This document shows, piece after piece, positions 8,658-28,135 of a stretch of 64,000 bases of DNA. The stretch comes from Candidatus Omnitrophota bacterium (lineage in GTDB: Bacteria; Omnitrophota; Gorgyraeia; Zapsychrales; Zapsychraceae). Made by a program: the position numbers and the translations under genes. The notes beneath the pieces were generated by a model. It ran no database searches and was not told the origin of the DNA. It saw nothing but the letters and a program-made list of their open reading frames with translations. Positions within the stretch are counted from its first letter, which is position 1. Every line of letters begins with the position of its first letter. The DNA is taken from the NCBI GenBank assembly GCA_050250375.1, contig JBFWOS010000001.1, forward strand, positions 702,361-766,360, written 5' to 3'.

Positions 8658-8674
8658 CAGAATTTCCTCAAAAA

Positions 8675-8690: not shown

Positions 8691-8709
8691 ACAACTGCCC
8701 AAAAAAATT

Positions 8710-9306: not shown

Positions 9307-9309
9307 GCT

Positions 9310-9346: not shown

Positions 9347-9435
9347 ATTTTAAAAAACTTTGCGGGAGGCGCGGGACAGGACGTTTGTCGAACATGGATA
9401 ATGACCAACTGCCCTCTACCTTACCTTTTCCACAT

Positions 9436-9906: not shown

Positions 9907-9929
9907 AAAAACGTGCCAGTTTGTGCCAG

Positions 9930-10490: not shown

Positions 10491-10557
10491 AATATTTTAT
10501 CCTACACTTATACGATGGACACACCGCTTAAGTAGTGGCATTACATTACTTAACTAC

Positions 10558-10697
10558 TGGTCAATCCCCTTCAACTTCAAAAAATCGCGGACGGTTTGGA
10601 CGACATAATCCATCTGGTTCAATTCAAGGTCCTGGTGGATGCCGATATGGGTGCCGCGGGCGGAGCAGTATTCGGCTTCCCGGGACGTACTTAATTA
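10558..10697 (-). pseudogene. Relic of the last ~43 codons of a DegT/ColD-family gene, a diverged copy of the 3-prime end of the gene at 12222..13475
   Basis: Translates to EAEYCSARGTHIGIHQDLELNQMDYVVQTVRDFLKLKGIDQ*. The intact gene ends EAEYCAGHGTHIGIHQDIELNQLDYVAQTVRDFLKAKGINR*. About 80 percent nt identity over ~140 bp. In frame directly behind the Fic stop codon. Confidence 0.6.
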
Positions 10698-11894
10698 TTG
10701 ATTCAGTCCGCTGTCCTCTTTTAATGAGTAACTCGTGCTGCGGCCGCCGGCCGGGTCCTTAACCAAAACACCTTTTCCAACAAGATCAAGAATGTCCCGA
10801 TGAGCGGTATCCTGCGAACACTTGGTGATTTTCGCCCATTTTGAAGTGGTCAGTTTACCCTCAAAACTGTCAAACAACTTGTTGATCATTGTCTTCTGGC
10901 GTTCGTTAATGGATCCAGCCGGAAGAGAATCCCAGAAGCGCACCTTTTTGAACACACCGGACAATGTGGTTTCGGTTGTGTCCAGCGCCCGGCCCAAACA
11001 ATTTAAAAACCACACCAGCCACGCCGTGATATCAATGCCGTCTTTTGCGGCATGGATACTTTTCTGTGTCTTTTCAAGAATATCGTAATAGGCATTCCGT
11101 TCCTGCCGGATATGGTTCGACATGCTGTAAAAACGCTCCCGGCTGCCGTCGGCGCGCGCCAGCTGCATATCGGCAATGGCCCGGGCTATACGGCCGTTGC
11201 CGTCATCAAAAGGGTGAAGCGTCACGAACCACAAATGCGCGATACCCGCCTTGAGCACGGGGTCCAAGTCCTTCGATCCACCTGTGGTGAGCGAAGGCCT
11301 TCGACCTTGCGCAGGCCGAGCCGAACCATTGAACCAAGCCAGAAATTCCTTCGTTTCACTCTTGAGGCGGCCGGCTTCCGGCGCTTCATAATGGACCTTC
11401 TCCCGGCCAACAGGACCGGACACAACTCGCATGGGGCCATGACGGTCGTCGCGCCAGGCGCCAACGGTAATTTTATGCATTCCACTGTGTCCGGTCGGAA
11501 ACAAACCGGCCTGCCAGCCAAACATTCGATCCTGGGTAAGGGGCTTGTCGAAATTCTGAGTGGCATCGAGCATCATTTCCACCACCCCGTCCACGTGACG
11601 ATCAGACGGCACAAGCCCTCCAATGTCCATACCCAGCCTTCGCGCGATGGATGAGCGCACTTTGGCCGGATCAAGGACCTCCCCCTCAATTTCACTGCTT
11701 TTTAAAACGTCAAGAGTGAGCGTCTGTAAAACGGCCTCCGAACGCAAAGAAAATCCCAGCGTTTCCATGCGTCCGATCAATCGCCCCTGCCGGTTGCGCA
11801 CGGGACCTAATATCGACGTGATTTTTTCATGATCCCATGTAAACGTCGGCCAAATATCTAATTCATGGATGTATTTCATCCCGGTTCCCTTCAT
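10695..11894 (-). CDS. Fic-family protein (DUF4172-type N-domain, Fic core, C-terminal winged helix)
   Basis: Canonical Fic motif HPFDDGNGRIARA. The true start is probably the second Met (MKYIHELD, 11879), which is preceded by AAGGGAA. Confidence 0.9.
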   Translation of the reverse strand: MKGTGMKYIHELDIWPTFTWDHEKITSILGPVRNRQGRLIGRMETLGFSLRSEAVLQTLTLDVLKSSEIEGEVLDPAKVRSSIARRLGMDIGGLVPSDRHVDGVVEMMLDATQNFDKPLTQDRMFGWQAGLFPTGHSGMHKITVGAWRDDRHGPMRVVSGPVGREKVHYEAPEAGRLKSETKEFLAWFNGSARPAQGRRPSLTTGGSKDLDPVLKAGIAHLWFVTLHPFDDGNGRIARAIADMQLARADGSRERFYSMSNHIRQERNAYYDILEKTQKSIHAAKDGIDITAWLVWFLNCLGRALDTTETTLSGVFKKVRFWDSLPAGSINERQKTMINKLFDSFEGKLTTSKWAKITKCSQDTAHRDILDLVGKGVLVKDPAGGRSTSYSLKEDSGLNQ

Positions 11895-12221: not shown

Positions 12222-13475
12222 TTACCGGTTAATCCCCTTCGCCTTGAGAAAATCGCGGACGGTCTGGGCGACGTAATCCAGCTGGTTCAGCTCGATGTCC
12301 TGGTGGATCCCGATATGGGTGCCGTGGCCGGCGCAATATTCCGCCTCGGGGAATTCACCTTGTTTATGCCCCATAAAGCCGTAACTCGGGCACTGGGTCG
12401 GGATGGAGGAAAATAAATTTCTTGAGTCGATCCCCTGCTGTTCGATGTGTTGCACGAATTCGTCTTTCGTAAACGGGCAGTTTTCTTTCAGGATGATCGA
12501 GAAGGCATGCGGCCCGATTTTTTCATGTTCCTGTTCATGCAATGTGATAAAAAATTCCTGAAAATCCCTGAACAGGTTGATCAGATACAATAAATTCCGG
12601 CGGCGTTTGCCCAGGATATCCTGAAAGATGTCGATATTACCCAGACCGACAGCCGCTTCCATTTCGTTCATCTTGGCGGAAAAACCGATCCGCTGGAACT
12701 CAAATTTGTTGACGATGCCGTGGTTGCGCAGCGACTGCATGGCCTGGGCTTTTTTCTCGTCGTTGGTGATGATGATCCCGCCTTCAATCGTGGTCACGAT
12801 ATGGGCGGCGTAAAGGCTGAAGGCGGCCATGTCGCCGATCGAGCCGATCTTCTTCCCTTTATATTCCGCGCCATGCGCCTCGGCCGCGTCTTCGATAACG
12901 ATCAGGTTATGTTTCTTGGCGATGGCCATGATCTTATCCATCTCGGCCGGTTTGCCCATCAGATGCACGGGCATGAGGGCGCGCGTTTTTTGGGTGATCG
13001 CTTTTTCAATCAGGTCCGGATTGATATTCAGCGTGTGCCGGTCGACATCCACAAACACAGGCGTTAACCCGGCCTGCAGGACGGCATTGGCGGTAGCGAC
13101 AAAGGTCAGCGCCGGGATGATCACCTCATCCCCGCGTTGGGCGCCGTAATCATACAGCACCGCGCAGGCAATCGCGTCGGCGTCGGTCCCGCTGCTGACG
13201 GCCACGGCGTATTTCACGCCGAACAGTTTGGCGAAACGTTCTTCGAACTCCTGCACAAAACGCCCGCGCGTCAGCCATTTTGACCGCAACGCCTCCTGGA
13301 TCAGCTCAACGGAGCGGTCCGTCAGGGAAACGGTCCCGAACGGGACCTTGAAATCTTTCTTAGCCGACATGGCTGAACTATTTTCCATTCCTAAAGAACT
13401 CCATGGCTTTTTCGTAGCGCTCCGGCGTGCCGATGTCAAAAAATTCGCCTTTGGACTTAAACCCGTACAAACCAT
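12222..13475 (-). CDS. ColD/E1(DdhC, RfbH)-type PMP-dependent NDP-4-keto-6-deoxy-sugar 3-dehydrase
   Basis: DegT fold in which the Schiff-base Lys is replaced by His (FSLYAAHIVTTIEGG, cf. ColD/E1 FY.HHI.TMEGG). C-terminal Cys residues are present. The start is more likely an internal Met (13388 or 13370), because the track start overlaps the upstream gene by 98 nt. Confidence 0.8.
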   Translation of the reverse strand: MVCTGLSPKANFLTSARRSATKKPWSSLGMENSSAMSAKKDFKVPFGTVSLTDRSVELIQEALRSKWLTRGRFVQEFEERFAKLFGVKYAVAVSSGTDADAIACAVLYDYGAQRGDEVIIPALTFVATANAVLQAGLTPVFVDVDRHTLNINPDLIEKAITQKTRALMPVHLMGKPAEMDKIMAIAKKHNLIVIEDAAEAHGAEYKGKKIGSIGDMAAFSLYAAHIVTTIEGGIIITNDEKKAQAMQSLRNHGIVNKFEFQRIGFSAKMNEMEAAVGLGNIDIFQDILGKRRRNLLYLINLFRDFQEFFITLHEQEHEKIGPHAFSIILKENCPFTKDEFVQHIEQQGIDSRNLFSSIPTQCPSYGFMGHKQGEFPEAEYCAGHGTHIGIHQDIELNQLDYVAQTVRDFLKAKGINR

Positions 13476-14088
13476 CTTCGATCAGGGAGGGAAACACATC
13501 GTATTCCAACGAAAACTTTCCTTCTTCGGGCATCATCTCAAACACATCCTGGTTGAAACAATACCGCCCGGCGTTAATAAAGGCCGCGCCTTTGTCTTTT
13601 TTTTCTTCAAAGGCCAGGATCCGGTCGGAGTCGTCCATCGTCAGGCTCCCGTAGTCTTTGCTGTCTTCCATCCGCGCGGCCACCATAGACGCGGCCGCTT
13701 TCTTGGACCGGTGGAATTCGGCAAATTTCTTAAAGTCGACCTCGCAGTAACAATCCCCGTTTAACACAAAAAACGGATCGCTTTCAACGATGGGCTGGGC
13801 GTTCTTAACCGCGCCGCCGGTCCCGAGCGGTTCTTCTTCCCGGGAAAAATCGACGACGAAATCCCGGTCGTTCTTCCGGTAATAATCTTCGATCCACTGG
13901 GCCTTGTATCCGGTGCACAGGACAAAACGCTGAAAGCCCTGCTCATATAATTTTTCCATGACGATATCCAGAAACGGCCGCTCTTCAAACTGGACCATGA
14001 CCTTGGGCGTGTCGGGGTCAATGCTTCTCAAACGTTTGCCTAACCCGCCGCACAGGATAACGACATCAAGATTCTCCAGCATTGTCAT
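13378..14088 (-). CDS. Sugar-1-phosphate nucleotidyltransferase (HddC/GDP-heptose guanylyltransferase-like)
   Basis: VVILCGGLGKRLR nucleotidyltransferase motif. Start chosen at MTMLENLD because the track N-extension overlaps the kinase gene. Confidence 0.8.
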   Translation of the reverse strand: MTMLENLDVVILCGGLGKRLRSIDPDTPKVMVQFEERPFLDIVMEKLYEQGFQRFVLCTGYKAQWIEDYYRKNDRDFVVDFSREEEPLGTGGAVKNAQPIVESDPFFVLNGDCYCEVDFKKFAEFHRSKKAAASMVAARMEDSKDYGSLTMDDSDRILAFEEKKDKGAAFINAGRYCFNQDVFEMMPEEGKFSLEYDVFPSLIEDGLYGFKSKGEFFDIGTPERYEKAMEFFRNGK

Positions 14089-15076
14089 ATTCTCCGTTCG
14101 GTTGATAAAAAATAATCTGGCTGCCCAGGCTCTCGAATTCAAACGGTACCAGGAGCAAATCCTTTAATTTTTCCCTGACCTTCTTCTGTTTCTCCGGGGG
14201 GACAAATAATAATACGAACCCGCCTCCGCCCGCCCCGAGCAATTTTCCGCCGACCGCGCCGGACGCCTTGGCCGAGTCATAAATCTCGTCAATCATCGGG
14301 GTCGAAATCTTGTCGGAGAGTTTTCTCTTGATCTGCCAGCCCTCATCGAGGAGTTCGCCGAATTCTTTGAGCCGGTCTTCCTTGAGCAGTTCAAGCCCCC
14401 TGACCGCCATTGCGTGCATGGCCTTCAACTCCGGTTTCTTTTTGGGGATATTTTTAATCTGATGGGCCGCGATCACCGAGGCGGTCCGGGAAAACCCGGT
14501 AAAAAATAACATCAAATGGTCCTGAAACCGCTTCAAGCGGTCCGAGGGAATAATCACCTTGTTGACCTGCAGAAGCTGGCTCCCGCCGAATTCAATAAAA
14601 TTAAATCCTCCGTAAGCCGCCAGCGCCTGGTCCTGGCAGCCGACATTTTCATGGCACATCTGCTGTTCGATATAAATGGCCTCTTCCGTCAGTTTGGACT
14701 TGCTCGTCATCCGTCCCAGCAGGGCGTAAAGGCTGTTTAACAATCCGACGGTGAATGAAGAACTTGAACCCAGGCCGGTCCGGGCCGGCAAATCGCCGTC
14801 GTGGTGGATCTCGATCCCTTTATGGATGTCCAGGTATCGAAGGACTTCCCGCACGGCCGGGTGATCAATATCATTGATTTCGGAAACATGTTCCATCTTG
14901 GAGTAGATGATCCTGGACTTATGGTCGAAGAACGGCGGCAGGTACCGGCAGGTGATATAACAATATTTATTAATCGTCGTTGCCAGGACAGCCCCGGGGT
15001 TGTTTTCAAACCAGGCCGGATAATCCGTCCCTCCTCCGAAAAACGACATGCGAAATGGTGTGCGGCTGATGATCAT
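14066..15076 (-). CDS. GHMP-family sugar kinase (HddA-like D-glycero-D-manno-heptose 7-phosphate kinase / fucokinase-like)
   Basis: MIISRTPFRMSFFGGGTDYP N-terminus. GHMP motif PARTGLGSSSSFTVG. Confidence 0.8.
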   Translation of the reverse strand: MIISRTPFRMSFFGGGTDYPAWFENNPGAVLATTINKYCYITCRYLPPFFDHKSRIIYSKMEHVSEINDIDHPAVREVLRYLDIHKGIEIHHDGDLPARTGLGSSSSFTVGLLNSLYALLGRMTSKSKLTEEAIYIEQQMCHENVGCQDQALAAYGGFNFIEFGGSQLLQVNKVIIPSDRLKRFQDHLMLFFTGFSRTASVIAAHQIKNIPKKKPELKAMHAMAVRGLELLKEDRLKEFGELLDEGWQIKRKLSDKISTPMIDEIYDSAKASGAVGGKLLGAGGGGFVLLFVPPEKQKKVREKLKDLLLVPFEFESLGSQIIFYQPNGEYDNAGES

Positions 15077-16584
15077 ACCGGCTTCCTCTCCTCCAGGATT
15101 TTTCTCTTAAGTTTGATCGTGGTTGAACGGACCGTCTCATCATAGGCCGTCTGGCCGAATTTGGTTTTGAGCAGATCCAGGAATTGGCTGTTCGTGTGAT
15201 ATTTCATCCAGGCCTCGTCCCGGAAGGCGAGCACTTCCTGCGCCGAGAGATATTTCGTCGGCAGCGGCAGCTGATGATAGGAATGCTGGGAATACCCCGT
15301 ATACGTGTCCGGAAGTTTCCAGCCCTTTTCAAGCGCCATGCCGTACAGCGGACTGCCGGGGTACGCCATAGCCGAATAAAAATTGGCCTCTTCGGTGTTC
15401 ATCTCCATCGCCAGGTCCAGGGTCGTCTGCATGCTCTGGTGATCATCCTCGGGAAGGCCGAAAATGTAATTGGCGATGACGTTGATGTCATGCTCCCGGA
15501 TTTTCCCGACCACGTCCCTGATGTCGACATCTTCAAACCGGCCTTTGGTGACATCCTTGCGCACCCGGGTATTGCCGCTTTCGATGCCCAGGGCCAGCCA
15601 ATTGACACCGGCTTTTTTGAGGGTCTCGAGAAATTTTTCTTTGACCGTGTCCACCCGGGAATAACACCAGATGTTGAATTTGTATTTCCGTTCGATGATC
15701 AGTTCACACAGCTTCATAAAATGATTTGAGTTCAGGACGAACAGTTCGTCGGCGATCTTGATATTGGTGATCCCGCGTTTGGCGAGTTCATCAAATTCTC
15801 CAATGATGAATTCCGGGTCCCAGTAACGGAACACGGCACTTCCGTCGGAATACTGGTTTTCCTGCCGGTTGATGATGTTGATCATGCAAAACGAACATTT
15901 CATCGGGCAGCCGAGGCTGGTGTACAAGGCCGCGAACGGCTGGCGTTGGGAACCGTTCGGGTACGAATGCCACAGGCTTGTCCGGTAATTTTTCATCGGC
16001 AGTTTGTCCCAGGGAATACCCGGCAGTTCTTTGGGCAGGTCCGCCTTCTCGACGATCGGGGAGGGCGCGTTTAACACGACTGTTCCGTCCTGCCTGTATC
16101 CGAGTCCGGGAACGGCACTAAGTTTGTCTTTCAAATTGGTCTTAAGCAAAGTGGAAATCGTGTAAACCCCTTCGTTCTGGCAGACAAAATCGATGCACGC
16201 GTGATTCTCCAGCACTTCGCGGGATAACGCGGCGATGTGGCCCCCGACAAACAGAATCTTTACCTCCGGCAAGATATTCCTGAGCTCCTGCGCGAGCGCG
16301 ACGGCGCCTTCCATATTCTGCGAACTCGCGGACGGCTGCTGGCCGTAAACGACAAAACAGGCCACCTTCGGCTTTATCTCCTTGATCTTCCGGGCTGATT
16401 CTTCATCCGTTAAGTGCAGGGCCTCACAGTCGAGGATGTCCGCCGAAAACCCTCTCGAGAGACAGTGGCTGGTCAGCATACCGGCCCAGATCGGCGGCTC
16501 AATGGCAGAAAAATCTTTGCTTAAATCCTGGTAGATTTTATGCGAGGCATTGGGATGAACAAATAAAATATCAAGCTGTCCCAT
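15073..16584 (-). CDS. Cobalamin(B12)-binding radical SAM protein (class B rSAM)
   Basis: N-terminal B12-binding Rossmann-like domain (KILFVGGHIAAL). CPMKCSFC radical SAM cluster motif. 503 aa. 4-nt overlap with the kinase gene. Confidence 0.85.
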   Translation of the reverse strand: MGQLDILFVHPNASHKIYQDLSKDFSAIEPPIWAGMLTSHCLSRGFSADILDCEALHLTDEESARKIKEIKPKVACFVVYGQQPSASSQNMEGAVALAQELRNILPEVKILFVGGHIAALSREVLENHACIDFVCQNEGVYTISTLLKTNLKDKLSAVPGLGYRQDGTVVLNAPSPIVEKADLPKELPGIPWDKLPMKNYRTSLWHSYPNGSQRQPFAALYTSLGCPMKCSFCMINIINRQENQYSDGSAVFRYWDPEFIIGEFDELAKRGITNIKIADELFVLNSNHFMKLCELIIERKYKFNIWCYSRVDTVKEKFLETLKKAGVNWLALGIESGNTRVRKDVTKGRFEDVDIRDVVGKIREHDINVIANYIFGLPEDDHQSMQTTLDLAMEMNTEEANFYSAMAYPGSPLYGMALEKGWKLPDTYTGYSQHSYHQLPLPTKYLSAQEVLAFRDEAWMKYHTNSQFLDLLKTKFGQTAYDETVRSTTIKLKRKILEERKPV

Positions 16585-16715: not shown

Positions 16716-17663
16716 TTAAACGTTACTGAGTTGGGATGTCACCTGCCGGACCTTCGGGATCACCGTGTAGCCTTTAATCAACTCGGTAATACCGTCCGCC
16801 AGGGAGACATCGGGCCTGAAGCCCGTCTTTTCAATTTTTTCATTACTGACGATATAATCCCTCTTATCAGGATCTTCGCCGGCATGGGATTCACTAAAAT
16901 TAAACCCGGGCACCTGTTTTTTGATTTCTTCGCACAGCTGCAACTTGCTGATATTCGCGTCACTGAGACCTACATTATAGGGTTCATCCTTCATCTTGTC
17001 AAAATGGTCGAGGGCATGCATGAACGCCTTGGCAATATCACGGACATGGATAAAATTGCGCATAAAATGGGCCTCAAACAATTCAACCGATCCGTCAAAG
17101 ACGGCCTTGTACGTAAAATCATTCACCAGAAGATCAAGCCGCATGCGCGGCGACACACCAAAGGCCGTGGCCAGGCGCAACGTGATCCCCTCTCCGGCTT
17201 CAAGGACCATCTGTTCGGCCTGGACCTTCAGCCGGCCGTAAACCGAGATCGGTTTTAACGGTGTTTCCTCCGTGCAGAACTTTCCTTTTTCCCCGATGCC
17301 GTAACCGCTGTTGGTCGTCGGATAAATGATCTTCTGTCCCGGACGGCGCAGTTTGATGATCTCCCTGAGGGCGTCAATTATAATTTCCTCGGCTTCTTTA
17401 GGATGACGGTCGCAGATCGGCGCTCCGGTCAGACACGCCAATGGAAAAACGGCATCGGCCTGCGGAACCAGCCGCTTTAACAACGCCGCGTCCCGCGTGT
17501 CGCCCCGGACAATGGCCAGGCCTTTATGGTGACAGCAGTCCAACAGCGACGTCTGGTTATACATAAAATTATCCAGCACCGTCACGTTATGCCCGGCCTG
17601 CAAAAGACGCGGGACCATAACCGACCCCAGATATCCGGCCCCGCCGGTGATTAATATATTCAT
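16716..17663 (-). CDS. NAD(P)-dependent epimerase/dehydratase (extended SDR)
   Basis: NILITGGAGYLGS Rossmann motif and YGRLK catalytic dyad. Start taken at MNILITGG, giving an ATGA overlap with the upstream gene. Confidence 0.8.
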   Translation of the reverse strand: MNILITGGAGYLGSVMVPRLLQAGHNVTVLDNFMYNQTSLLDCCHHKGLAIVRGDTRDAALLKRLVPQADAVFPLACLTGAPICDRHPKEAEEIIIDALREIIKLRRPGQKIIYPTTNSGYGIGEKGKFCTEETPLKPISVYGRLKVQAEQMVLEAGEGITLRLATAFGVSPRMRLDLLVNDFTYKAVFDGSVELFEAHFMRNFIHVRDIAKAFMHALDHFDKMKDEPYNVGLSDANISKLQLCEEIKKQVPGFNFSESHAGEDPDKRDYIVSNEKIEKTGFRPDVSLADGITELIKGYTVIPKVRQVTSQLSNV

Positions 17664-18592
17664 GTCGAAACCTCGTTTTTGTACCAATCGATTGTCTTTT
17701 GAATTCCAACGTTTAGATCTTCTTTAACCTTCAGCCCCAATTTGTTCATCCTGCCCGTATCCAACAGCTTCTGCATAACCCCATCCGGCATCGAACGGTC
17801 ATATGTAATCTGGCCTTTAAACCCGGTCAATCGGGCGATCAGCTGCGCCAACTCTTCAATGGTGATATCCTTCCCTGTCCCGATATTGACCACATCCTCA
17901 CCCGCATCATTTTTCAGCATAAACAGGGCCGCTTCGATAAAATCATCGACAAAAAGAAATTCCCGTCTCGCCTTCCCGGAACCGCCGACACTGACTTCCG
18001 GGCGGTTATTCCGGACCGCGTCGACAAATTTGTGGATCAACGCGCCCATGACATGCGCGGTCTTTAAATCCGTATCCGATCCCGGCCCGTACACCGTCGC
18101 GGGGATCATCACCGCCGTGTTCAGCCCGTACTGTTTCCGGAAACTGCGGGCGAGAGAAATACCGGCGATCTTCGCGATGGAATACGGCTCACTGGTCTTT
18201 TCCAGCGGGCCGGTCAGGATGGCGTCTTCGTTCATCGGCTGCGGGCATTCCCCGGGATAAACGCATGAACTGGCCAGATAGAGAATCTTTTTGGCTTTAA
18301 ACTTATTCGCCGCGTAAAAAATATTGCATTCGCTTTGAAGATTATGATAAATAAAGTCCGCAGGAGATTGTTCGTTCGCGGTGATCCCGCCCGACCGGGT
18401 CGATCCCAAAACCACATAGTCTGGACGGTGGGTCTGAAAAAAATCGTAAACCGATGCCTGGATGGCGGCGTTAAGCGCCAGGGCTGAAACGCTGAAGACG
18501 GATGGAAACCCCTGCGCGGTGAAATATCGGCAGAGCGCTTGTTCGATTATATCATTGTGCCCGACCAGTAATATCTTCGATGATTTGTCCAT
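17660..18592 (-). CDS. GDP-L-fucose synthase (Fcl/WcaG/ColC) homologue with a degenerate dinucleotide-binding motif
   Basis: Collinear with E. coli Fcl (PADFIYHNL, LASSCVYP, EPYSIAKIAG, NIGTGKDITIEELAQ, MPDGVMQKLLD). Catalytic S/C/Y/K/H are retained, but GxxGxxG reads GHNDIIE. Confidence 0.8.
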   Translation of the reverse strand: MDKSSKILLVGHNDIIEQALCRYFTAQGFPSVFSVSALALNAAIQASVYDFFQTHRPDYVVLGSTRSGGITANEQSPADFIYHNLQSECNIFYAANKFKAKKILYLASSCVYPGECPQPMNEDAILTGPLEKTSEPYSIAKIAGISLARSFRKQYGLNTAVMIPATVYGPGSDTDLKTAHVMGALIHKFVDAVRNNRPEVSVGGSGKARREFLFVDDFIEAALFMLKNDAGEDVVNIGTGKDITIEELAQLIARLTGFKGQITYDRSMPDGVMQKLLDTGRMNKLGLKVKEDLNVGIQKTIDWYKNEVST

Positions 18593-19759: not shown

Positions 19760-19918
19760 TTAAAAAATCGTGTAAATAAAAGGAGTCACCGCCGAAGTCT
19801 GAGCAAAAATGATCAGCAGACTTAAGATCACCAGAATAATGATGATCGGCGCGAGCCAATATCTTTTTCTGACCTTAAGAAACTCCCAGAATTCTTTTAA
19901 GATTGTAATTTTTGCCAT
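19760..19918 (-). CDS. SxtK-like small membrane protein (DUF5989-type), 52 aa
   Basis: MAKITILKEFWEFLKVRKRYWLAPIIIILVILSLLIIFAQ... is a single TM helix. Not in the ORF track because it is too short. Confidence 0.5.
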   Translation of the reverse strand: MAKITILKEFWEFLKVRKRYWLAPIIIILVILSLLIIFAQTSAVTPFIYTIF

Positions 19919-19920
19919 AA

Positions 19921-20466
19921 TTAAAATTGTTTGGTGTAGTGTTCCTGTTTAAACTCTTTAATTTCACGTTTGATCCAATAAGAATCCGCTTTCGGATCAA
20001 GCGCCCTGGTCAGATAATCCTTTTTCGCCATTTTTAAAAATAAGGCCACCGGTGTAAAAACCAGATAATACATCAATCCCAAAATGACGGCCGTTAAAAC
20101 ATGGCTGATCGCGTGCCCGCCCTTCATCCATACTTTGTAAACAGGCGCCAGCTGATCGACGTTAAGGATTGTCGTTATCAAAAATGCCGCGGCTATACAG
20201 AAAAACAACATCGGGAGCGGCGTCGGGTGGGACTGAAAAATCCGGAAAGCCGTAAATATCAAAACAAGGAATATCCAGGCATTTGCCTTCGGGGTCAGCT
20301 CGGAAGTCTTCGTCGTTACCCACAACACACCGGAAAAACCGGCCAGCAGGATCAGCACGGACACCGCACTAAAGCCAAGTTTATAGCTGTGAAAGCAGAT
20401 CAGGTACGGGATAATCAAGGACATCCCGTAACCATACACATATAAATCTTTTTTTTCTTTTTCCAT
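19921..20466 (-). CDS. SxtJ-like membrane protein
   Basis: Four predicted TM helices. Start chosen at MEKEKKDLYV, 1 nt after the carbamoyltransferase stop; the track extension overlaps the upstream gene by 146 nt. Confidence 0.55.
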   Translation of the reverse strand: MEKEKKDLYVYGYGMSLIIPYLICFHSYKLGFSAVSVLILLAGFSGVLWVTTKTSELTPKANAWIFLVLIFTAFRIFQSHPTPLPMLFFCIAAAFLITTILNVDQLAPVYKVWMKGGHAISHVLTAVILGLMYYLVFTPVALFLKMAKKDYLTRALDPKADSYWIKREIKEFKQEHYTKQF

Positions 20467-20467
20467 C

Positions 20468-22285
20468 TTAATCCAGAACCAGCGACATATTTTCTTTCTT
20501 ATACTTGTCCGACTTGGGCTGAAGGTTTTTATCCAGGATATAATTCTCAAGGACCAGGTAATCCATATCGGTGCACATAAAACACCGGTAGGCATCCTGG
20601 GGACTGCACACAATCGGCTCTCCCCTGATGTTGAACGATGTATTGATGATGACCGGGCATCCCGTCAGTTTGTCGAATTCCTTAATGATCTTGTAATACA
20701 ACGGATTGTCCGTTTCGTCAACCGTTTGTATCCGGGCCGAATAGTCAACGTGTGTCACCGCCGGAATGACGGAACGGCAGATTTTCAGTTTATCGATCCC
20801 GCTGGCCGACACTTTCTTCGATTCCGCGTTAATTTTCTTTTCGTTAACGTCCGCCACCATCAGCATGTATGGGCTGACCGTCGTATAATCAAAATACTCG
20901 GACACTTTTTCCTTAAGCACACTCGGAGCAAACGGGCGGAAGGATTCCCGGAACTTGATTTTCAAATTGATGATGGACTGCATCTTCTCGGAACGGGCAT
21001 CCCCGATAATGCTCCTGGCGCCCAGCGCTCGCGGGCCGAATTCCATCTTTCCGACGACCAGGCCGATCACCTTCTGATCATTGATCAAATGGGCGACCTT
21101 CAACGGCAGTTCGTCCGGATTGATACGGGTAAACGGCAGATTCTCCTGGCGTAAAAATTTTTCAATCTCTTCATTGTCGAAACGCGGCCCCAGATACGAT
21201 CCCCTTTGCAAATCATTGATCCCGTCCACGTCCCGCTTATTTTGTAAATATTGATACCAGATGAATGACGCCACCCCCAGGGCCCCTCCGGCATCACCGG
21301 CCGCCGGCTGGATCCAGATATTTTTGAACGGACCTTTTTTTAAAATCTTCCCGTTCCCGACACAGTTAAGAGCAACACCGCCGGCCAGACACAAATTGTC
21401 GGCCTTTGTCTGGGCATAAACATAGTTCGCCATCTTCAGCATAATTTCTTCCGTGACTTCCTGGATGGAACGGGCCAAATCCATGTGGTGCTGTTTCAAT
21501 TCCGATTCCGGGTCGCGGCGGGGATGGCCGAACAATTGGTGGAATTTTGAATTCGTCATCGTCAACCCGACGCAATAGTTGAAATAATCCATGTTCAGCC
21601 GGAACGATCCGTCATCTTTAATGTCGATCAGATTCTGCCTGATTAAATCTGTATACTTCGGCTCACCGTATGGAGCCAGCCCCATCACCTTGTATTCACC
21701 CGAATTCACCCGGAATCCCAGATAATACGTGAACGCTGAATAGAGCAGTCCCAAAGAATGGGGAAAATTAATTTCACCCAGAAGCTTGACGCCGTTGTCT
21801 TCACCCACTCCGTAACTGGTCGTGGCCCATTCACCGACGCCGTCCATCGTCAGGATCGCCGCTTTTTTAAAGGGCGACGGAAAAAACGCCGAAGCGGCGT
21901 GCGATTCGTGATGTTCGGTAAAAATGATCTCCCCGTCATAATTCAATTCACGAAGGAGAAGATCTTTGAGGAAGATTTTTTCTTTCAGCCAGACCGGCAT
22001 GGCCTTCAAAAAGGATTGGATGCCCAAAGGAGCGTAACTCAGGTAGGTCAATAGCAGCCGTTCAAATTTCAAAAAGGGTTTATCATAAAACCCCACGTAA
22101 TCCACCTCATCAATCGATATGTTCCCTTCCTTCAGACAAAATTCAACGGCGTTTTTGGGAAACGATTCATCGTGTTTCTTGCGGGTAAACCGCTCCTCCT
22201 GGGCCGCGGCGATGATTTCCCCGTCCCTGATCAAACAGGCCGCGCTGTCATGGTAAAATGCGGAAATTCCTAAAATATTAACCAT
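20468..22285 (-). CDS. NodU/CmcH-family O-carbamoyltransferase
   Basis: MVNILGISAFYHDSAACLIRDGEIIAAAQEERFTRKKHD and HHESHAASAFF motifs. 605 aa. Confidence 0.85.
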   Translation of the reverse strand: MVNILGISAFYHDSAACLIRDGEIIAAAQEERFTRKKHDESFPKNAVEFCLKEGNISIDEVDYVGFYDKPFLKFERLLLTYLSYAPLGIQSFLKAMPVWLKEKIFLKDLLLRELNYDGEIIFTEHHESHAASAFFPSPFKKAAILTMDGVGEWATTSYGVGEDNGVKLLGEINFPHSLGLLYSAFTYYLGFRVNSGEYKVMGLAPYGEPKYTDLIRQNLIDIKDDGSFRLNMDYFNYCVGLTMTNSKFHQLFGHPRRDPESELKQHHMDLARSIQEVTEEIMLKMANYVYAQTKADNLCLAGGVALNCVGNGKILKKGPFKNIWIQPAAGDAGGALGVASFIWYQYLQNKRDVDGINDLQRGSYLGPRFDNEEIEKFLRQENLPFTRINPDELPLKVAHLINDQKVIGLVVGKMEFGPRALGARSIIGDARSEKMQSIINLKIKFRESFRPFAPSVLKEKVSEYFDYTTVSPYMLMVADVNEKKINAESKKVSASGIDKLKICRSVIPAVTHVDYSARIQTVDETDNPLYYKIIKEFDKLTGCPVIINTSFNIRGEPIVCSPQDAYRCFMCTDMDYLVLENYILDKNLQPKSDKYKKENMSLVLD

Positions 22286-22413
22286 AGATCCTTTAAATAT
22301 TTGATTATTTCTTCATATAAAAGTGTACACTTCTTCGGGAGATACGCCATCCTAATATATACCTCCCTCACAACCAATATCGAACTTTAATGCACAGTGC
22401 GAAACGTTGAAGT

Positions 22414-23268
22414 TTACTTCAGAACTATATCCAACATTTTAATATATTTAGGATTTAAAGGCGTGCCATCATTCTTAATTGATTGTGAAATATAAAGAAG
22501 CGCCTCTGCCTGTCCATACTTGTTTTCAGTCCGAGTTACCAAGTAAAGAGCAGTATCGAAATCTTGCTGATCACTGTAATATTTAATCATAGGAAGGGTT
22601 GTATCGCTCCAGAAAGAAGTATCTTGTGATAACATTACGACATCAGTAGCCTTTTTATACTCTTTCAGCCCACTGTATGCCCCCGCAATACCAAGTAAAT
22701 GGCCATTCGCGTAATTTCCTGTTTTAAATTCTTCAATCGCTATGCCAACTAATTCAAGAGCCATTTTATAATCACCGGTTTTTTCATACAAGGCGTGTGC
22801 AGTATTAGCTAAAGCGTACGGGTCTTTTTGAGAAGCCGTAACGGCTTCCTCGTATTTCCCACTTTTTACCAATAACTGCACCGTATCCCATTTTTTCTGA
22901 TAACTCGGTATAGATGTTACTAAATAGCTGGTACCCGTGGTATCCTTTTTATATCTAGCATAAAGTTCCATTAGCTTTTTATGTTTATCGTCAATTCCCA
23001 AATTTTTATACTCGTCCGCAATATTTTTTAATATAGATAACTTTTCTGGCACAAAGCTATAATCTGAATGCAATATCCAAAAAGAATAATTCAATAGCGT
23101 CGCTTTCGCATTCTCTCCTTCTATTGATTTAATAATCATACCGTTAACCGGCTTTGCGGATAGATTTGGTCTAACGTTCTTAATCGAGCGTCCCTCAAGA
23201 AAGACTAATGCGCAGTAAACCAAGAAGGCTCCCACAATAAACAAAAATAAAACAGCTAATTTCTTCAT
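22414..23268 (-). CDS. Hypothetical membrane-anchored protein with TPR-like helical repeats
   Basis: N-terminal TM helix. AT-rich gene. Confidence 0.45.
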   Translation of the reverse strand: MKKLAVLFLFIVGAFLVYCALVFLEGRSIKNVRPNLSAKPVNGMIIKSIEGENAKATLLNYSFWILHSDYSFVPEKLSILKNIADEYKNLGIDDKHKKLMELYARYKKDTTGTSYLVTSIPSYQKKWDTVQLLVKSGKYEEAVTASQKDPYALANTAHALYEKTGDYKMALELVGIAIEEFKTGNYANGHLLGIAGAYSGLKEYKKATDVVMLSQDTSFWSDTTLPMIKYYSDQQDFDTALYLVTRTENKYGQAEALLYISQSIKNDGTPLNPKYIKMLDIVLK

Positions 23269-23359
23269 TTTTCACCTTTTGTTTTCGATGTCTTTGTCTC
23301 AAGTTAAACACTTAACCCACCATAGCCAACAACTCCGCCAGTTGTTAATTGCCAAACTT

Positions 23360-26300
23360 CTACAAACAATTTCCAGATTCACTGCCTGCATTGATAGTAG
23401 CTGATCCACTGATACTACAATCTCCAACAGTGGCCGCTTGCATATGAAAATTATTTGTTACAGTAACTTCTGAAGCTGCACTTAAGATGGCGTCGTCACC
23501 ACCAATCATATCAAATGAATCCGCGGTAATCTCTGCTCCCAAATTTATTTTGACGTCACTTGTTGACGTTGACCCCGTTGAGATCATTGAAGCACCCTCA
23601 GTAACTGTGACTTCGGATTCTGTACCAATCTCCACCTGTCTGTCGGCGCTCATTTCGAGGCTGGCAGCGGTAATCGCCGAGCTAATGCCAATCAATGCCT
23701 TACTGTTTGAACTCGTTCCCGTTGAAATGATCTCAAGTTCATCGTCAACATCCAAAATCATACCTGGACCTGTAGAGGCCTCTTGATTTGCTTCAAGTCG
23801 AACACTACCCGCATGAATTGTTGAAGTCTGCCCCATATGGGCTTTATTAGTGGAAGAGGTGCCCAGCGATTTAATGAGAAGCGGCCCGTCAACGTCGACT
23901 TGGGCGTTGCTGTAGATTTGTGCTATCTTGTATGCTTGCAAGGTCAATTCCGTGGCATTAATCGTTGAATTTGAACCCAGCTCTGTATCCCCGGTTTCTG
24001 AAACTAACGTCACGAATGTCCCGTTGATTGTCATTCCGTTCGAATTTGCGACCCCGGTTCGCCCATCAATGCAAATCCTTTCACCTGTGAGAACTTTTCC
24101 GGTTGCTATGGTTACCTTACAGGGAGAATGAATGTCAATGTTATCCATCGTGACATTGTAGTTAATTGTTAAATTTCTGTAATAAGTTCCCGTATAATCA
24201 TAATCAACAAGATAGTCTTCCAACTGTGAATCATTTGTAACGGTCGTTGTTGATGAACAGGTAACGCCAACCAGGTAGTCAGTTTTTATAGTACATGGCT
24301 CTTGCATAGGGTCGTTAATTGTGATCGTCAAATCCGGTGATCCTGGTGCATCTTCCCTATTTCCAACTTGGTCGGTTGCTATAGTATAAAACGAATATGT
24401 AGAACCGTTTACACCGACGAAGGACGTGAACGTTCCCGTGGTGGTTAAGGTTTCAGCATACGGACCTGAGTTTTCAGATACATAGATGGTGTATTCTTTT
24501 ATCCCCGAATGCGCGTCACTTCCTGACCACGAAATGTCAAAACTGGTCAAAGTGCCCGTTGATGCCATACTGTTCATGGAACTGGACGGTTTTGTATCAT
24601 CAATGGTGTTCAGCCAGGTATTGGTGGTGATTGGACTATTAGTGTCAAAAACTATGCTCGCACTATTGATTATTTCATCATTTGTTTCTACTGAATCTTT
24701 CGCCCGCACGGAAAATGTCACAAACCCATCGCCTTCGGGAGGATTATCATTAGGCGGTAAGAATCCAGCATTCGGATCATCCGTAAACATATGTGACTCC
24801 GGATCAAGAGAAATAAATTTCCACACGACGTCACCGGAAGCTGTGTTTAATGCAACCTCTATCCTCAAGATTAAGTCATTGTCAGGTCGCAAATCTACCT
24901 CGGTTATAAACTCTTGAATTCCGCTAGGCAGATTGATTATTTTTTCCGCAACTCCAATAGGTCCTAATTCAAAAGTACTTAAATCCAGAACCGTTGTATC
25001 TAGTTGGTCCGAAACGATAACTTCCTGCGCGGGTGCGCTTGCCGATTCGATATTCTCAAAATAAATTATATATTGCAAAGGCTGTCGTTTAGCAATATAT
25101 TTTTCTGAACCAAAACCCTGCGGACCAACAATAGCGTTAGGGTCTCGTGAAGTCACAAGAAAAATTATTTTCGCTAACTTATTTGCACCCCACCAAAAAT
25201 CCCAAGCTGTACTAACAACTCCTGAAGTGAGTTCCCATGTCACAATAGCTTTATCTATTAGCTGATTAAGTTCAGTCCATTTCAATACTTCATTAAACCC
25301 ACAGGTCGCTTTGCCCAGAGTCTGACCACAAAGTGATATCCACGGTTGTTCCCTTTGTTCCACAACACCATTGACCAATTTTCCATACGTTAGCAAAGAA
25401 TAAAATCCCAAACAAGATGTGTCGTATGGCGTTTCGATAGAACATCCCGTACCATTTGAGCTCCATTCACAAAATGTAACATTCGCCATAAGCACGGGTA
25501 AATTTTCTCTAATCCTGGAAACTAATGCAGGCATTTCTCCTGGTCTAATAGGTCTCAGGCCATATAAATGTTCTATTTGTATAGTTTTCGTTCCACCTCC
25601 GGGTAAATCAATCGTAACTTCTCCATCCTTGATGTCATTAAAAGGTATCTCAACAGGTCCCACCCCTCTTAGATTTAGGTATGTTTTATCATCCAATCGT
25701 GTTCCAATATAACCTTCCCCTTCAGGTTTTATGCTGGAGAACTCAGAATCATATATATTAAACCAGTCCAGAATACCATCCGGGGCATCTTCATTCGCCT
25801 TGTACCTCTGATTGGCATATTTTAGAGTTGTTGAAGGATTATTTGTTGCAGTTAGCGAGTCAGGCAATGGAAGTGTATTGTTTGTTGGTTCAAAATGTGT
25901 GACATTGTCACCAAAGCCAAAATCAATCACAGTACTACCAAAATTAAGACTGATGTTTCCAGAAGATAACGACGATTTTATTCTAATGGGAAAACTACGA
26001 GATGAATGAACCGGCAAATTTGCAACTATAAAACCTGCAACTGTGTCTTCAGCCAAATTCTTAAATGAGTCTGAGAATTCTGGGATCAGATAATCGACCT
26101 CATCAGGTATACCAACAAATAATTCCGCTGAAGTAATATCATTGTTTCCAATATTTCCATATGTAACCAAATAAGTTTGCTCTCTGTCGGGACGCATGTC
26201 TGTTCTACCAATAATATCCATCCACAGCCCACTTGGTGCTCCATCTTCAACGGTAAAAGCATTTTCACTTGTTATGGTATTTCCGGAATTTATTATCACA

Positions 26301-28135
26301 ATGGTCCAATCACCCTGTGCTTTTCCAGCTAGATCAAATGTCGCTTTCAACACTAGACCGTTATTTAGAATTTGAAGAAAGTCCCCTTCTATATCGTCTT
26401 CGCCAGATTTGGTTAACATAACATGGGTTCCTTCATCAAATACGCTGCCTGAAAACGTAATTGTTAAATTCCCAGTATCACCCCCTCGATCCGGATTGAT
26501 TGCCAACACGGTTTGTTGCTGAACAACTGTCCCATCATCACCATCTTCACCAACACCGTTTCCGCCGGTTGCGGTCGTAGTTCCGGTAAATGTTTCATTT
26601 TGACGGTGATAAATAGCTATTCGTCCACCGCCACCACCGCCGCCGGCGGCTGAACCGCCTACTAACTGGCTGTTTCCACCATTGGCCGTAATTACTCCGC
26701 TCCCGGTAAAATTCTCCGTAATGACATATATACTACCACCCGATCCGCCGCCAGACTGACTCCCCTGCGGCAATCCCATCCCGCCATTTGCAGATAATAC
26801 CCCGTTTACTGTTAACGTATCAGCAATATTTAGTTGAATCTTTCCACCACCTGTGCCGCCGCTACTAGGCGTGTAGACATTATTAATTGTAAATCCCGGT
26901 CCGGCACCCCCGCTGCCAAAATCTACCGGGGCTGTTGGTGAACCGTATGCAATCCCTCCCTGAGCTGTGCCACCTTCGCCGCCATACCCACCGCCTCCGC
27001 CGCCTTGCCCCTGATTCTCTAATGCGGCCCCAACTCCCATCCCGCCTTTGAACCCTTTGGAATCCGCGGAGACTTTTGAACCGGAAGTTATGGTGAGATT
27101 ATTGGCTTTTAAGAACAGGTTCCCCTCAATCAACGAGGTTCCTGTGACCGTTACGTCTTTGATATTGAAAGTTTCCTCACCATTAAGAAAAAATGACGAA
27201 GCGCCATCCAAAATTAACTGGGTCCCTGAAATAGTTACAGTCCCATCCGTAGTTGTCACGGAAGCATCATCGAGAGTAATGGTATCAAATTCAAGAGGAC
27301 TGTCATTCAACTGAAACCGCCATTGATGTCCAGCGATAAACTCATTGTTAGCCATGTCAATAAATCCGACCGTTCCGTCACCACCATCACCGCTTTCACC
27401 CAATTCTGTATGCCCGTGCCCACCTATGGCCCTTGCTGAACCGGTAAATGTTGACGATTCATAGTATACGGCAATGCGCCCGCCGCCACCACCGCCGCCG
27501 CGTAATGAACCTCCGTTTCCTCCATTAGCAACGATATCCCCTGAACCGGCCAGAGTACTTGTCGTAATATAAATTCCGCCGCCCGCGCCGCCGCCGCTTC
27601 TAAGATCACACTGAAATACACTTTCCCCATTAGCCGAAAGAGTCCCGCTCACCGTCAATGTATTTGCAACATCAAGCCAAATTGCGCCCCCGCCTCTGCC
27701 GCCGCTTTGATTACCGCCGCACACTGCCCCGCCCCCGCCGCTTCCCATTTGAAATGGCTGTGTGGCTGATCCATACCAAGGTCCTTTAGCCGACAGGATA
27801 GGCGTCGTTCCACCATTCCCACCGTGCCCGCCGCCACTTCCCCCAGTCACCGATGCTGAACCTGCCCCGGGGCCCTGATTGGCATTGTATCCCTTTTTAT
27901 CGGCGCTGATCCTTGATCCCGATGAAACTGTTATATTATCGGCGGTGATGCGGACTGTTCCTTCCAGCGTCAACGCCGCGTTGTTGGATACGGTCACATC
28001 ATCATAGGTGTATGCGCCGGTTGTAAGAGTGGTGTTGGTGGTTACGGTCAAGTCTGCGGCGAAAGCTGAATGACTAATTAAGAGAAAAGAAAGCAAGACG
28101 AAGGATTGTATAAATTTGAAAGGCCGTAGAATCAT
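23360..28135 (-). CDS. Giant secreted glycine-rich beta-solenoid protein with Ig-like/FN3 domains (adhesin-like)
   Basis: Signal peptide MILRPFKFIQSFVLLSFLLISHSAFA. Two tandem ~230-aa modules rich in GGxGG rungs (e.g. ANGGNGGSLRGGGGGGGRIAVYY / ANGGNSQLVGGSAAGGGGGGGRIAIYH). A clear FN3 domain (DISWSGSDAHSGIKEYTIYVSENSGPY...). Ser/Thr-rich beta-helix-like C-terminus. Confidence 0.75.
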   Translation of the reverse strand: MILRPFKFIQSFVLLSFLLISHSAFAADLTVTTNTTLTTGAYTYDDVTVSNNAALTLEGTVRITADNITVSSGSRISADKKGYNANQGPGAGSASVTGGSGGGHGGNGGTTPILSAKGPWYGSATQPFQMGSGGGGAVCGGNQSGGRGGGAIWLDVANTLTVSGTLSANGESVFQCDLRSGGGAGGGIYITTSTLAGSGDIVANGGNGGSLRGGGGGGGRIAVYYESSTFTGSARAIGGHGHTELGESGDGGDGTVGFIDMANNEFIAGHQWRFQLNDSPLEFDTITLDDASVTTTDGTVTISGTQLILDGASSFFLNGEETFNIKDVTVTGTSLIEGNLFLKANNLTITSGSKVSADSKGFKGGMGVGAALENQGQGGGGGGYGGEGGTAQGGIAYGSPTAPVDFGSGGAGPGFTINNVYTPSSGGTGGGKIQLNIADTLTVNGVLSANGGMGLPQGSQSGGGSGGSIYVITENFTGSGVITANGGNSQLVGGSAAGGGGGGGRIAIYHRQNETFTGTTTATGGNGVGEDGDDGTVVQQQTVLAINPDRGGDTGNLTITFSGSVFDEGTHVMLTKSGEDDIEGDFLQILNNGLVLKATFDLAGKAQGDWTIVIINSGNTITSENAFTVEDGAPSGLWMDIIGRTDMRPDREQTYLVTYGNIGNNDITSAELFVGIPDEVDYLIPEFSDSFKNLAEDTVAGFIVANLPVHSSRSFPIRIKSSLSSGNISLNFGSTVIDFGFGDNVTHFEPTNNTLPLPDSLTATNNPSTTLKYANQRYKANEDAPDGILDWFNIYDSEFSSIKPEGEGYIGTRLDDKTYLNLRGVGPVEIPFNDIKDGEVTIDLPGGGTKTIQIEHLYGLRPIRPGEMPALVSRIRENLPVLMANVTFCEWSSNGTGCSIETPYDTSCLGFYSLLTYGKLVNGVVEQREQPWISLCGQTLGKATCGFNEVLKWTELNQLIDKAIVTWELTSGVVSTAWDFWWGANKLAKIIFLVTSRDPNAIVGPQGFGSEKYIAKRQPLQYIIYFENIESASAPAQEVIVSDQLDTTVLDLSTFELGPIGVAEKIINLPSGIQEFITEVDLRPDNDLILRIEVALNTASGDVVWKFISLDPESHMFTDDPNAGFLPPNDNPPEGDGFVTFSVRAKDSVETNDEIINSASIVFDTNSPITTNTWLNTIDDTKPSSSMNSMASTGTLTSFDISWSGSDAHSGIKEYTIYVSENSGPYAETLTTTGTFTSFVGVNGSTYSFYTIATDQVGNREDAPGSPDLTITINDPMQEPCTIKTDYLVGVTCSSTTTVTNDSQLEDYLVDYDYTGTYYRNLTINYNVTMDNIDIHSPCKVTIATGKVLTGERICIDGRTGVANSNGMTINGTFVTLVSETGDTELGSNSTINATELTLQAYKIAQIYSNAQVDVDGPLLIKSLGTSSTNKAHMGQTSTIHAGSVRLEANQEASTGPGMILDVDDELEIISTGTSSNSKALIGISSAITAASLEMSADRQVEIGTESEVTVTEGASMISTGSTSTSDVKINLGAEITADSFDMIGGDDAILSAASEVTVTNNFHMQAATVGDCSISGSATINAGSESGNCL

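Follow-up and report, generated by a model that had tools for sequence, protein, structure and literature searches.

What do the two small membrane proteins SxtJ and SxtK contribute to the carbamoyltransferase beside which they are encoded? In saxitoxin pathway schemes, both have been carried as 'unknown' or as 'works with SxtI' since 2008–2009. This question is raised again by a stretch of 64,000 nucleotides from the genome of a Candidatus Omnitrophota bacterium (GenBank assembly GCA_050250375.1, contig JBFWOS010000001.1, positions 702,361 to 766,360), here called the window, in which three adjacent minus-strand genes encode an O-carbamoyltransferase (CT), an SxtJ-like protein and an SxtK-like protein of the DUF5989 family. 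The sxtI, sxtJ and sxtK genes were reportedly first described by Kellmann et al. in 2008. The sxtI-J-K unit and its presumed joint action in carbamoyl transfer have been in print since 2009; the description was repeated, with no experiment added, in 2010, 2020, 2025 and 2026. In papers dated 2009 to 2026, SxtJ and SxtK stay functionally uncharacterised, in agreement with an initial annotation of this stretch made from its letters alone, and a literature search found the term 'DUF5989' in no paper.

The reading developed here is that the CT, SxtJ and DUF5989 proteins form one functional unit, in which SxtJ and DUF5989 would be membrane subunits that dock, and possibly activate, a cytoplasmic CT at the inner membrane. 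We give this reading as a whole about an even chance of being correct; the genes and their families, the tight coupling, the linkage across phyla and the distinct CT clade are observed directly, and from these we infer the physical complex, the docking role, the SxtJ topology and the acceptor.

The limits of the three genes (Table 1) and the spacings between them agree to the base with the initial annotation. The SxtJ-like gene begins with an ATG at 20466, 1 nt past the CT stop, and ends with a stop codon at 19921–19923; the DUF5989 gene starts 2 nt past this stop, and the next gene in the same direction starts 3 nt past the stop of DUF5989. Spacers of 1, 2 and 3 nt amount to tight coupling and favour a functional unit. 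The assignment of the first gene to the NodU/CmcH-type O-carbamoyltransferases is borne out by full-length matches to both Pfam domains, Carbam_trans_N (PF02543; 352 bits, profile positions 2–345 of 346) and Carbam_trans_C (PF16861; 240 bits, profile positions 1–170 of 170), which correspond to a Kae1-like N-domain and a YrdC-like C-domain. The closest solved relatives in the PDB are GdmN, NovN and TobZ (248–297 bits). Catalytic motifs are kept: the metal motif H125/H129/D331 (H-x3-H plus Asp) and the segment G417-P-R-A-L-G-x-R-S425 (GPRALGxRS) of the carbamoyl-AMP-forming domain are invariant in alignment A4, and both align to GdmN. By homology, the window CT is predicted to be an O-carbamoyltransferase dependent on carbamoyl phosphate and ATP.

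The SxtJ-like protein passes the Pfam SxtJ model (PF19588) narrowly, with 27.2 bits against a cut-off of 24.4 and with only residues 87–152 covered. Its profile retrieves 13,211 cluster representatives at E ≤ 0.001, and an identical protein in GenBank, from the Candidatus Omnitrophota metagenome-assembled genome (MAG) GCA_050181705.1, is named 'SxtJ family membrane protein' by NCBI. Although the family assignment of the initial annotation stands, its count of four transmembrane helices does not. An AlphaFold2 model built with a 126-sequence alignment (predicted local distance difference test score, pLDDT, 93.9) places helices at residues 3–27, 34–54, 59–78, 83–101 and 103–146, followed by an extended charged tail, and hydropathy also gives five hydrophobic segments. 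The canonical SxtJ has approximately 134 residues (about 130–140) and three helices, a size from which the window protein departs; in alignment with the canonical form, it carries a two-helix insertion of approximately 50 residues. This long subclass (174–187 residues) recurs beside the short form among family representatives. Motif positions, taken as those conserved at 70% or more in the 126 sequences, comprise F-G near the N-terminus, Y-x-x-W-M, K-D-x-L, S-Y-W and a C-terminal Q-F. Most of these are kept in the window protein, in which the F of the N-terminal motif is replaced by Y (Y11) and the invariant pair Y163-W164 stands just after S162. Counts of lysine and arginine residues moderately favour a cytoplasmic C-terminal tail (about 9.5 versus 5.4); family-wide, the tail has approximately 8.2, compared with 2.7 for the N-terminus and 2.65 for the helix that precedes the final transmembrane segment.

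The 52-residue protein with a single transmembrane helix, proposed earlier to be SxtK-like, is assigned with a wide margin to DUF5989 (PF19451; 82.5 bits, cut-off 27, E 2e-23), and the identical protein from the same MAG carries the NCBI name 'DUF5989 family protein'. A word-indexed protein search yielded 1,151 relatives, many of which are 75–90% identical over all 52 residues; relatives across phyla are 56–90% identical, and 17 positions are invariant among the 25 diverse sequences of alignment A2. Such conservation is unusual for a membrane protein of this length. Because all six lysine and arginine residues precede the helix and none follows it, the conserved amphipathic N-terminus (KEFWxFLKVRKRYW) is predicted to face the cytoplasm, the side on which the CT works. 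Since both small proteins pass their Pfam thresholds, are named by NCBI and have many relatives, neither is the product of a chance open reading frame (ORF).

Conservation of the trio was assessed by a scan for DUF5989 using one genome per species, which identified at least 578 species; the best 80 loci were kept, and the window CT and profiles of SxtJ and DUF5989 served as queries against the ORFs called in them. Of these 80 loci, 75 have an intact trio, in about ten phyla and three gene orders: CT-SxtJ-DUF5989 (56 loci), SxtJ-DUF5989-CT (18 loci, all SAR11/Pelagibacter) and DUF5989-CT-SxtJ (a single locus, from Nitrospirae). Two of the five incomplete loci end at a contig edge. Taxa with the trio include Omnitrophota, Planctomycetes, Nitrospirae, Elusimicrobia, Desulfobacterales, Deferribacteres, Gemmatimonadota and SAR11, and the gap from the SxtJ stop to the DUF5989 start has a median of 13 nt across loci. 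The SxtJ-DUF5989-CT order is also present on Sinorhizobium and Methylosinus replicons outside the 80 loci. Because the linkage survives three gene orders in about ten phyla, it constitutes strong evidence that the CT, SxtJ and DUF5989 form a functional unit. The small genes clearly neither fail their family searches nor lack conservation beside carbamoyltransferases.

A reverse check started from the CT. Homologues of the enzyme occur in 433 records of a plasmid collection, and regions across the identity range were searched with the SxtJ and DUF5989 profiles. Plasmid CTs that score at least 748 bits against the window CT have both partners (Gemmatirosa, Ensifer, Methylosinus), and those that score 405 bits or less have neither. 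Both partners accompany the CT of the Sinorhizobium meliloti 1021 replicon pSymB (780 bits), where the SxtJ-DUF5989-CT trio lies at positions 8533–10990 of locus L083 (pSymB 483,955–486,412); the Methylosinus order, as annotated, is SGNH-SxtJ-DUF5989-CT. Neither partner is found near the waaF-linked Paraburkholderia CT (403 bits), the Cupriavidus CT (405 bits) or the Rhizobium etli p42d CT (325 bits). The trio-type CT of the Ralstonia solanacearum megaplasmid (678 bits, 52% identical) is neighboured only by a 68-residue protein and then an SGNH hydrolase, and the only neighbour of interest beside the Tateyamaria CT (529 bits) is SGNH-like.

These comparisons place the partners with one distinct, highly conserved CT clade, because partnered CTs are 56–86% identical to the window CT (median 63%; 775–1235 bits in the 80-locus survey) and share two features that partner-less CTs lack. 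One is an insertion of approximately 24 residues ahead of IPAVTHVDYS (residues ~462–490 of the window CT), and the other is a C-terminal tail of approximately 22 residues ending in F-x-L-D (residues 584–605). In alignment A4, neither feature is present in the waaF-linked Paraburkholderia CT, the R. etli p42d CT or Ralstonia CT2, all of which have no partners. Carbamoyltransferases for lipopolysaccharide (LPS) and Nod factors, which are 27–44% identical to the window CT, occur without SxtJ or DUF5989 partners. The clade-specific insertion and tail are candidate docking surfaces for the partners, and SxtI, going by family naming, falls in the same clade.

Two replicons in this set call for separate remarks. 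In Ralstonia, the 68-residue 'hypothetical protein' (L084 5851–6057) resembles the last SxtJ helix plus tail (…VFIPLGWLTRLADP…SGSY…). The SxtJ profile does not detect this protein, which is perhaps a minimal SxtJ remnant; further on are a second CT and an ATP-grasp gene. In S. meliloti, a divergent gene for a membrane-anchored SGNH protein and a two-component system lie upstream of the pSymB trio, in a region that is unannotated in the PLSDB table, and a literature search on the Sinorhizobium pSymB carbamoyltransferase returned nothing relevant.

Neighbouring ORFs of the survey loci were clustered, and the largest clusters were annotated. Outside SAR11, the commonest neighbours are GT9 heptosyltransferases (11 loci), GT2 (11), GT4 (9), Wzy_C/O-antigen ligases (8) and Bac_transf proteins (5), joined by nucleotide-sugar dehydrogenases and epimerases. 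The neighbours of the trio are thus mostly envelope-glycan genes, and envelope-glycan clusters appear to be its main home. In SAR11 loci, an acetolactate-synthase-like thiamine enzyme is encoded upstream and an FAD oxidoreductase downstream, and glycosyltransferases are absent. Since the SxtJ/DUF5989 pair is found in glycan clusters, in these SAR11 loci and in the saxitoxin and suomilide clusters, it tracks the CT and not a particular acceptor. An enzyme-directed rather than an acceptor-directed role fits this pattern, because the pair accompanies the CT to chemically unrelated acceptors (saxitoxin, suomilide).

A mechanism consistent with these observations can be outlined. The CT has to act in the cytoplasm and depends on ATP and carbamoyl phosphate, as is established for TobZ-type enzymes. 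In the cytoplasmic CT, the YrdC-like domain would make carbamoyl-AMP from carbamoyl phosphate and ATP, and the Kae1-like domain would hand the carbamoyl group to a hydroxyl, as homology with TobZ, GdmN and NovN suggests. SxtJ and DUF5989 would be non-catalytic integral-membrane subunits; by binding the CT, they would keep it, or activate it, on the cytoplasmic side of the inner membrane. Contact would probably be made by the N-terminus of DUF5989, which is basic and amphipathic, and by the C-terminal tail of SxtJ, which is charged and bears motifs.

Several points weigh against this docking proposal. The soluble relatives TobZ, GdmN and NovN act without membrane partners. WapO carbamoylates the LPS core, also without partners according to a published Pseudomonas gene table, in which no SxtJ or DUF5989 gene lies next to wapO (PA5005). 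Membrane-proximal carbamoylation therefore needs no such subunits in principle. Nor can the full explanation be that docking gives access to a lipid-linked acceptor, since saxitoxin is a soluble small molecule. The topology of SxtJ is uncertain: the odd number of predicted helices would put its termini on opposite sides of the membrane. No CT-SxtJ or SxtJ-DUF5989 fusion is present among the best 150 matches to the SxtJ profile (all of 200 residues or fewer), nor is any fusion involving DUF5989 present among its best 120 matches (all of 79 residues or fewer). Finally, no CT lies within the short flank available in loci L015, L042 and L082. A 922-residue ORF in a Planctomycetales MAG (L018 1418–4186) joins a short-chain dehydrogenase/reductase (SDR) and a CT with no stop between them, whether as a genuine fusion or through an assembly artefact; we set it aside as fusion evidence because one MAG is its sole source and the locus includes 200 Ns.

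We also weighed whether the membrane proteins take part in the transfer itself. The CT would activate carbamoyl, and SxtJ and DUF5989 would pass it across the membrane, perhaps via the Ser-Tyr-Trp motif, for delivery to an extracytoplasmic glycan with the help of an SGNH/GDSL-like protein where one is present. The analogues are the O-acetylation systems PatA/PatB, OatA (AT3 plus SGNH) and AlgI/J/F/X, which the trio resembles in concept only. What recommends such a relay is an SGNH/GDSL-like family (350–430 residues, weak Pfam Lipase_GDSL_2 matches; Table 1) of which 19 of the 80 loci have a member next to the trio or within it. Its gene stands between those of SxtJ and DUF5989 in L018 and L064 and between those of DUF5989 and the CT in L063 and L078, and it likewise neighbours the trio in the Methylosinus and Sinorhizobium replicons and the CT in the Ralstonia replicon. 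Those members from trio loci that were inspected carry a membrane anchor at the N-terminus, which the Ralstonia member lacks. The GDSL-lipase gene sxtL follows sxtK in saxitoxin clusters, the suomilide cluster keeps sxtJ, sxtK and sxtL together, and S162 precedes the invariant Y163-W164 of SxtJ. Yet SxtL has been proposed to be a decarbamoylase, and an SGNH-fold protein, although recurrent in a quarter of trio loci, is absent from about three quarters of those surveyed. A search with an SGNH profile found no gene of this family near the window trio, the only weak match being 36 kb away. In addition, Ralstonia and Tateyamaria have a CT and an SGNH protein without DUF5989, which indicates that the SGNH protein is independent of the pair. 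SxtJ and DUF5989 together provide only 4–6 helices, neither resembles MBOAT or AT3 proteins in Pfam searches, and the SxtJ charge counts favour a cytoplasmic, not a periplasmic, tail. We know of no carbamoyl relay, and we consider this one unlikely. Its most far-reaching form, to which we assign little credence, would make the trio an ancient and widespread envelope-glycan carbamoylation machine (at least 578 species, including SAR11 and rhizobia, often with an SGNH-like fourth protein) that relays carbamoyl across the inner membrane, with sxtI-J-K-L as a recruited copy. Should this hold, the carbamoyl relay would be a counterpart of the PatA/PatB and OatA relays, and the first to carry a group other than acetyl.

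The initial annotation had suggested that the small proteins might act as a flippase or as an acceptor chaperone for the CT, and neither role finds support here. A flippase or exporter for a carbamoylated lipid-linked sugar or product would have precedents in the small-protein flippases GtrA and ArnE/ArnF; canonical SxtJ and DUF5989 together have four helices, and envelope-glycan neighbours are common. However, a Foldseek search of the SxtJ model against the PDB gave no significant match (best E 4.5), with EmrE listed only at E 8.2 and TM-scores of 0.30 and 0.45. When the SxtJ and DUF5989 profiles were run against PDB sequences, nothing above noise was obtained (E ≥ 1) and no solved membrane transporter was matched; neither protein matched a flippase domain in Pfam, and by sequence SxtJ resembles no GtrA, SMR/ArnEF or Wzx-type flippase in Pfam or the PDB. 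The most conserved parts of both proteins are soluble or interfacial motifs, with no polar transmembrane pathway, and saxitoxin clusters have their own MATE exporters. An acceptor-presenting chaperone is at odds with the same pair occurring with saxitoxin, with a suomilide-type peptide glycoside and in SAR11 loci; the pair follows the CT clade and not the acceptor type or the presence of glycosyltransferases. We regard a flippase, exporter or chaperone role as quite improbable. It is similarly doubtful that the small proteins are accessories that regulate or stabilise the CT, for example by keeping it sequestered at the membrane while substrate is lacking. A review does tabulate sxtJ and sxtK as 'Regulatory', a label that carries no experiment, and strict co-inheritance with the CT would be equally expected of a dedicated regulator. 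Against this, Pfam identifies no DNA-binding, sensor or enzymatic domain in either protein, and the small proteins should, given translational coupling, be made in roughly stoichiometric amounts with the CT, as is more typical of subunits. The proposal that SxtJ and DUF5989 are docking subunits of the CT remains our preferred explanation, and a membrane-associated role in carbamoylation, as first annotated, is reasonable from the family assignments, the linkage and the sugar context.

The trio stands at the head of a run of eleven same-strand genes that extends from 22285 down to 12222 with only one gap greater than 100 nt, and the earlier statement that it is co-operonic with sugar-nucleotide enzymes agrees with this arrangement (Table 1). 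Operon limits rest on spacing only, because a promoter and terminator scan did not exceed the shuffled expectation (20 versus 13.9 and 17 versus 14.5).

Table 1. Features of the carbamoyltransferase operon in the window, and SGNH/GDSL-like genes of other loci (in locus coordinates).
Feature	Coordinates	Strand	Basis
O-carbamoyltransferase (CT), 605 aa, SxtI-like clade of the NodU/CmcH/TobZ family	20468..22285	-	Pfam, PDB relatives, motifs
SxtJ-family integral membrane protein, 181 aa, long variant; five predicted helices, charged C-terminal tail with S-Y-W and Q-F motifs	19921..20466	-	Pfam PF19588, NCBI name, alignments A1 and A3, AlphaFold2
DUF5989 (SxtK-like) protein, 52 aa; basic amphipathic N-terminus, one transmembrane helix, C-terminal PFIYT(I/L)F	19760..19918	-	Pfam PF19451, NCBI name
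Truncated pyruvate-dehydrogenase (PDH)-E1-alpha-like thiamine-diphosphate protein, 204 aa	19142..19756	-	Pfam E1_dh; NCBIfam PDH_E1_alph 58 bits, far below cut-off
Truncated PDH-E1-beta-like protein (pyrimidine-binding domain), 178 aa	18592..19128	-	Pfam Transket_pyr, NCBIfam, GenBank gene call, synteny
SDR like GDP-L-fucose synthase (3,5-epimerase/4-reductase type)	17660..18592	-	NCBIfam GDPFucSynFcl 331 bits, cut-off 500 not reached; Pfam Epimerase
Second NAD-dependent sugar epimerase/dehydratase-family SDR	16716..17663	-	Pfam Epimerase, GDP_Man_Dehyd
B12-binding radical SAM enzyme, probably C-methyltransferase or related	15073..16584	-	Pfam B12-binding and Radical_SAM; NCBIfam partial matches
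GHMP sugar kinase, closest to D-glycero-D-manno-heptose 7-phosphate kinase HddA	14066..15076	-	Pfam GHMP_kinases_N and _C; NCBIfam HddA 141 bits, below cut-off
Sugar-1-phosphate nucleotidylyltransferase, closest to mannose-1-P/heptose-1-P guanylyltransferases	13378..14082	-	Pfam NTP_transferase; NCBIfam ManC-like 158 bits, HddC 156 bits
DegT/PseC-type sugar aminotransferase, last gene of the same-strand run	12222..13388	-	Pfam DegT_DnrJ_EryC1 352 bits; NCBIfam PseC, RfbH partial matches
128-nt intergenic region 5' of CT, likely operon start	22286..22413	-	Gap in sequence; one weak promoter-like match 22383-22354, 9/12
SGNH/GDSL-like genes	L018 4599-5816; L064 4930-5982; L063 6196-7266; L078 6024-7277; L085 1847-3121; L083 6788-8116 (-); L084 6078-7175

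The whole cassette recurs in loci L003, L005, L011, L018 and L056, in the order dehydrogenase, SDR, CT, SxtJ, DUF5989, E1-alpha, E1-beta, SDR, SDR, radical SAM enzyme, GHMP kinase and nucleotidyltransferase. The same five loci keep the very short E1-alpha/E1-beta-like pair right after DUF5989, and this pair may constitute a minimal enzyme of two-carbon branching for a keto-sugar. We rejected a phosphonate-pathway reading of the downstream thiamine, B12-radical SAM and nucleotidyltransferase genes, as the thiamine proteins are PDH-E1-like and not phosphonopyruvate-decarboxylase-like, and no phosphoenolpyruvate mutase was seen. Upstream of the CT are genes for a 284-residue protein, a 1591-residue DUF7619 protein, an SDR, two nucleotide-sugar dehydrogenases and LptD. 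The 284-residue and DUF7619 genes (22414–28135, minus strand) are inserted between the SDR and the CT, whereas five related genomes have their SDR and nucleotide-sugar dehydrogenase genes directly 5' of the CT. The 284-residue protein has an N-terminal hydrophobic segment; it was rejected as a hidden SGNH partner, having no Pfam or NCBIfam match and no match to the SGNH profile.

Farther from the trio, downstream of its operon, a second sugar block occupies 1.4–7.2 kb of the window (1413–7169, minus strand), with genes for a GT28/MGDG-synthase-like protein, a GmhB-like HAD phosphatase, a GT2 glycosyltransferase, a DegT aminotransferase and a GT9 heptosyltransferase; this block is consistent with an LPS-core-like region. 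A Fic-domain gene lies at the end of the window operon (10695–11894, minus strand), and Fic-domain genes also occur between SxtJ and DUF5989 in L022 (4660–5580) and just upstream of DUF5989 in L015 (1064–1984). The latter DUF5989 may be an orphan, as its 4.4-kb contig has neither a CT nor SxtJ. In both L015 (2252–2410) and L023 (191–349), DUF5989 is directly followed by a GT9 heptosyltransferase.

The cell-envelope sugar context proposed for the trio is well supported by the HddA-like, HddC/ManC-like, GDP-fucose-synthase-like SDR and DegT genes and the nucleotide-sugar dehydrogenases, together with the GT9, GT2 and LptD genes nearby. The operon would make a modified GDP-activated sugar, probably from heptose or a 6-deoxyhexose. 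Because the trio heads an operon of this kind, the acceptor is most likely an envelope-glycan sugar handled at the membrane, such as one in the LPS core or O-chain; a glycan sugar is the most plausible acceptor in the window. It may be heptose-derived, by analogy with the 7-O-carbamoyl-heptose that WapO, the Pseudomonas carbamoyltransferase, produces in the LPS core. Since the window has a GT9 heptosyltransferase, a GmhB-like HAD phosphatase and HddA/HddC-like genes, heptose carbamoylation would be a plausible parallel to WapO. Both WapO and the waaF-linked Paraburkholderia enzyme are NodU-family CTs encoded among heptosyltransferase or LPS core genes. However, the Paraburkholderia CT is only 39% (tblastn) or 43% (alignment A4) identical to that of the window and lacks the insertion, the C-terminal tail, SxtJ and DUF5989.

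The nearest known system is the cyanobacterial SxtI-SxtJ-SxtK set, which has the same three Pfam families in the same order and at similar sizes (sxtJ, 405 nt; sxtK, 165 nt). The two differ in that the window trio belongs to a nucleotide-sugar/envelope operon and the sxt genes to a toxin pathway, that the window SxtJ is the long form with two extra helices, and that no equivalent of sxtL follows the window trio. TobZ, GdmN, NovN, NodU and NolO share the two-domain architecture and catalytic motifs of the window CT, but they are soluble, act on small molecules or Nod factors, have no membrane partners and score only 248–297 bits. In TobZ-type chemistry, carbamoyl phosphate and ATP yield carbamoyl-AMP, from which the carbamoyl group is transferred to a hydroxyl.

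The window adds no new kind of system. Its locus is an ordinary further example, in an uncultured phylum, of a trio already catalogued, and both small families are already in Pfam and NCBI naming. What the survey indicates is that the trio is mainly an envelope-glycan module, distributed over many phyla, with its own CT clade and a representative on pSymB of S. meliloti 1021. The question of what SxtJ and SxtK do is thus open to study in a tractable model rhizobium, and not only in toxic cyanobacteria. If the small proteins are essential for activity, this would also account in part for why saxitoxin carbamoylation is hard to reconstitute heterologously.

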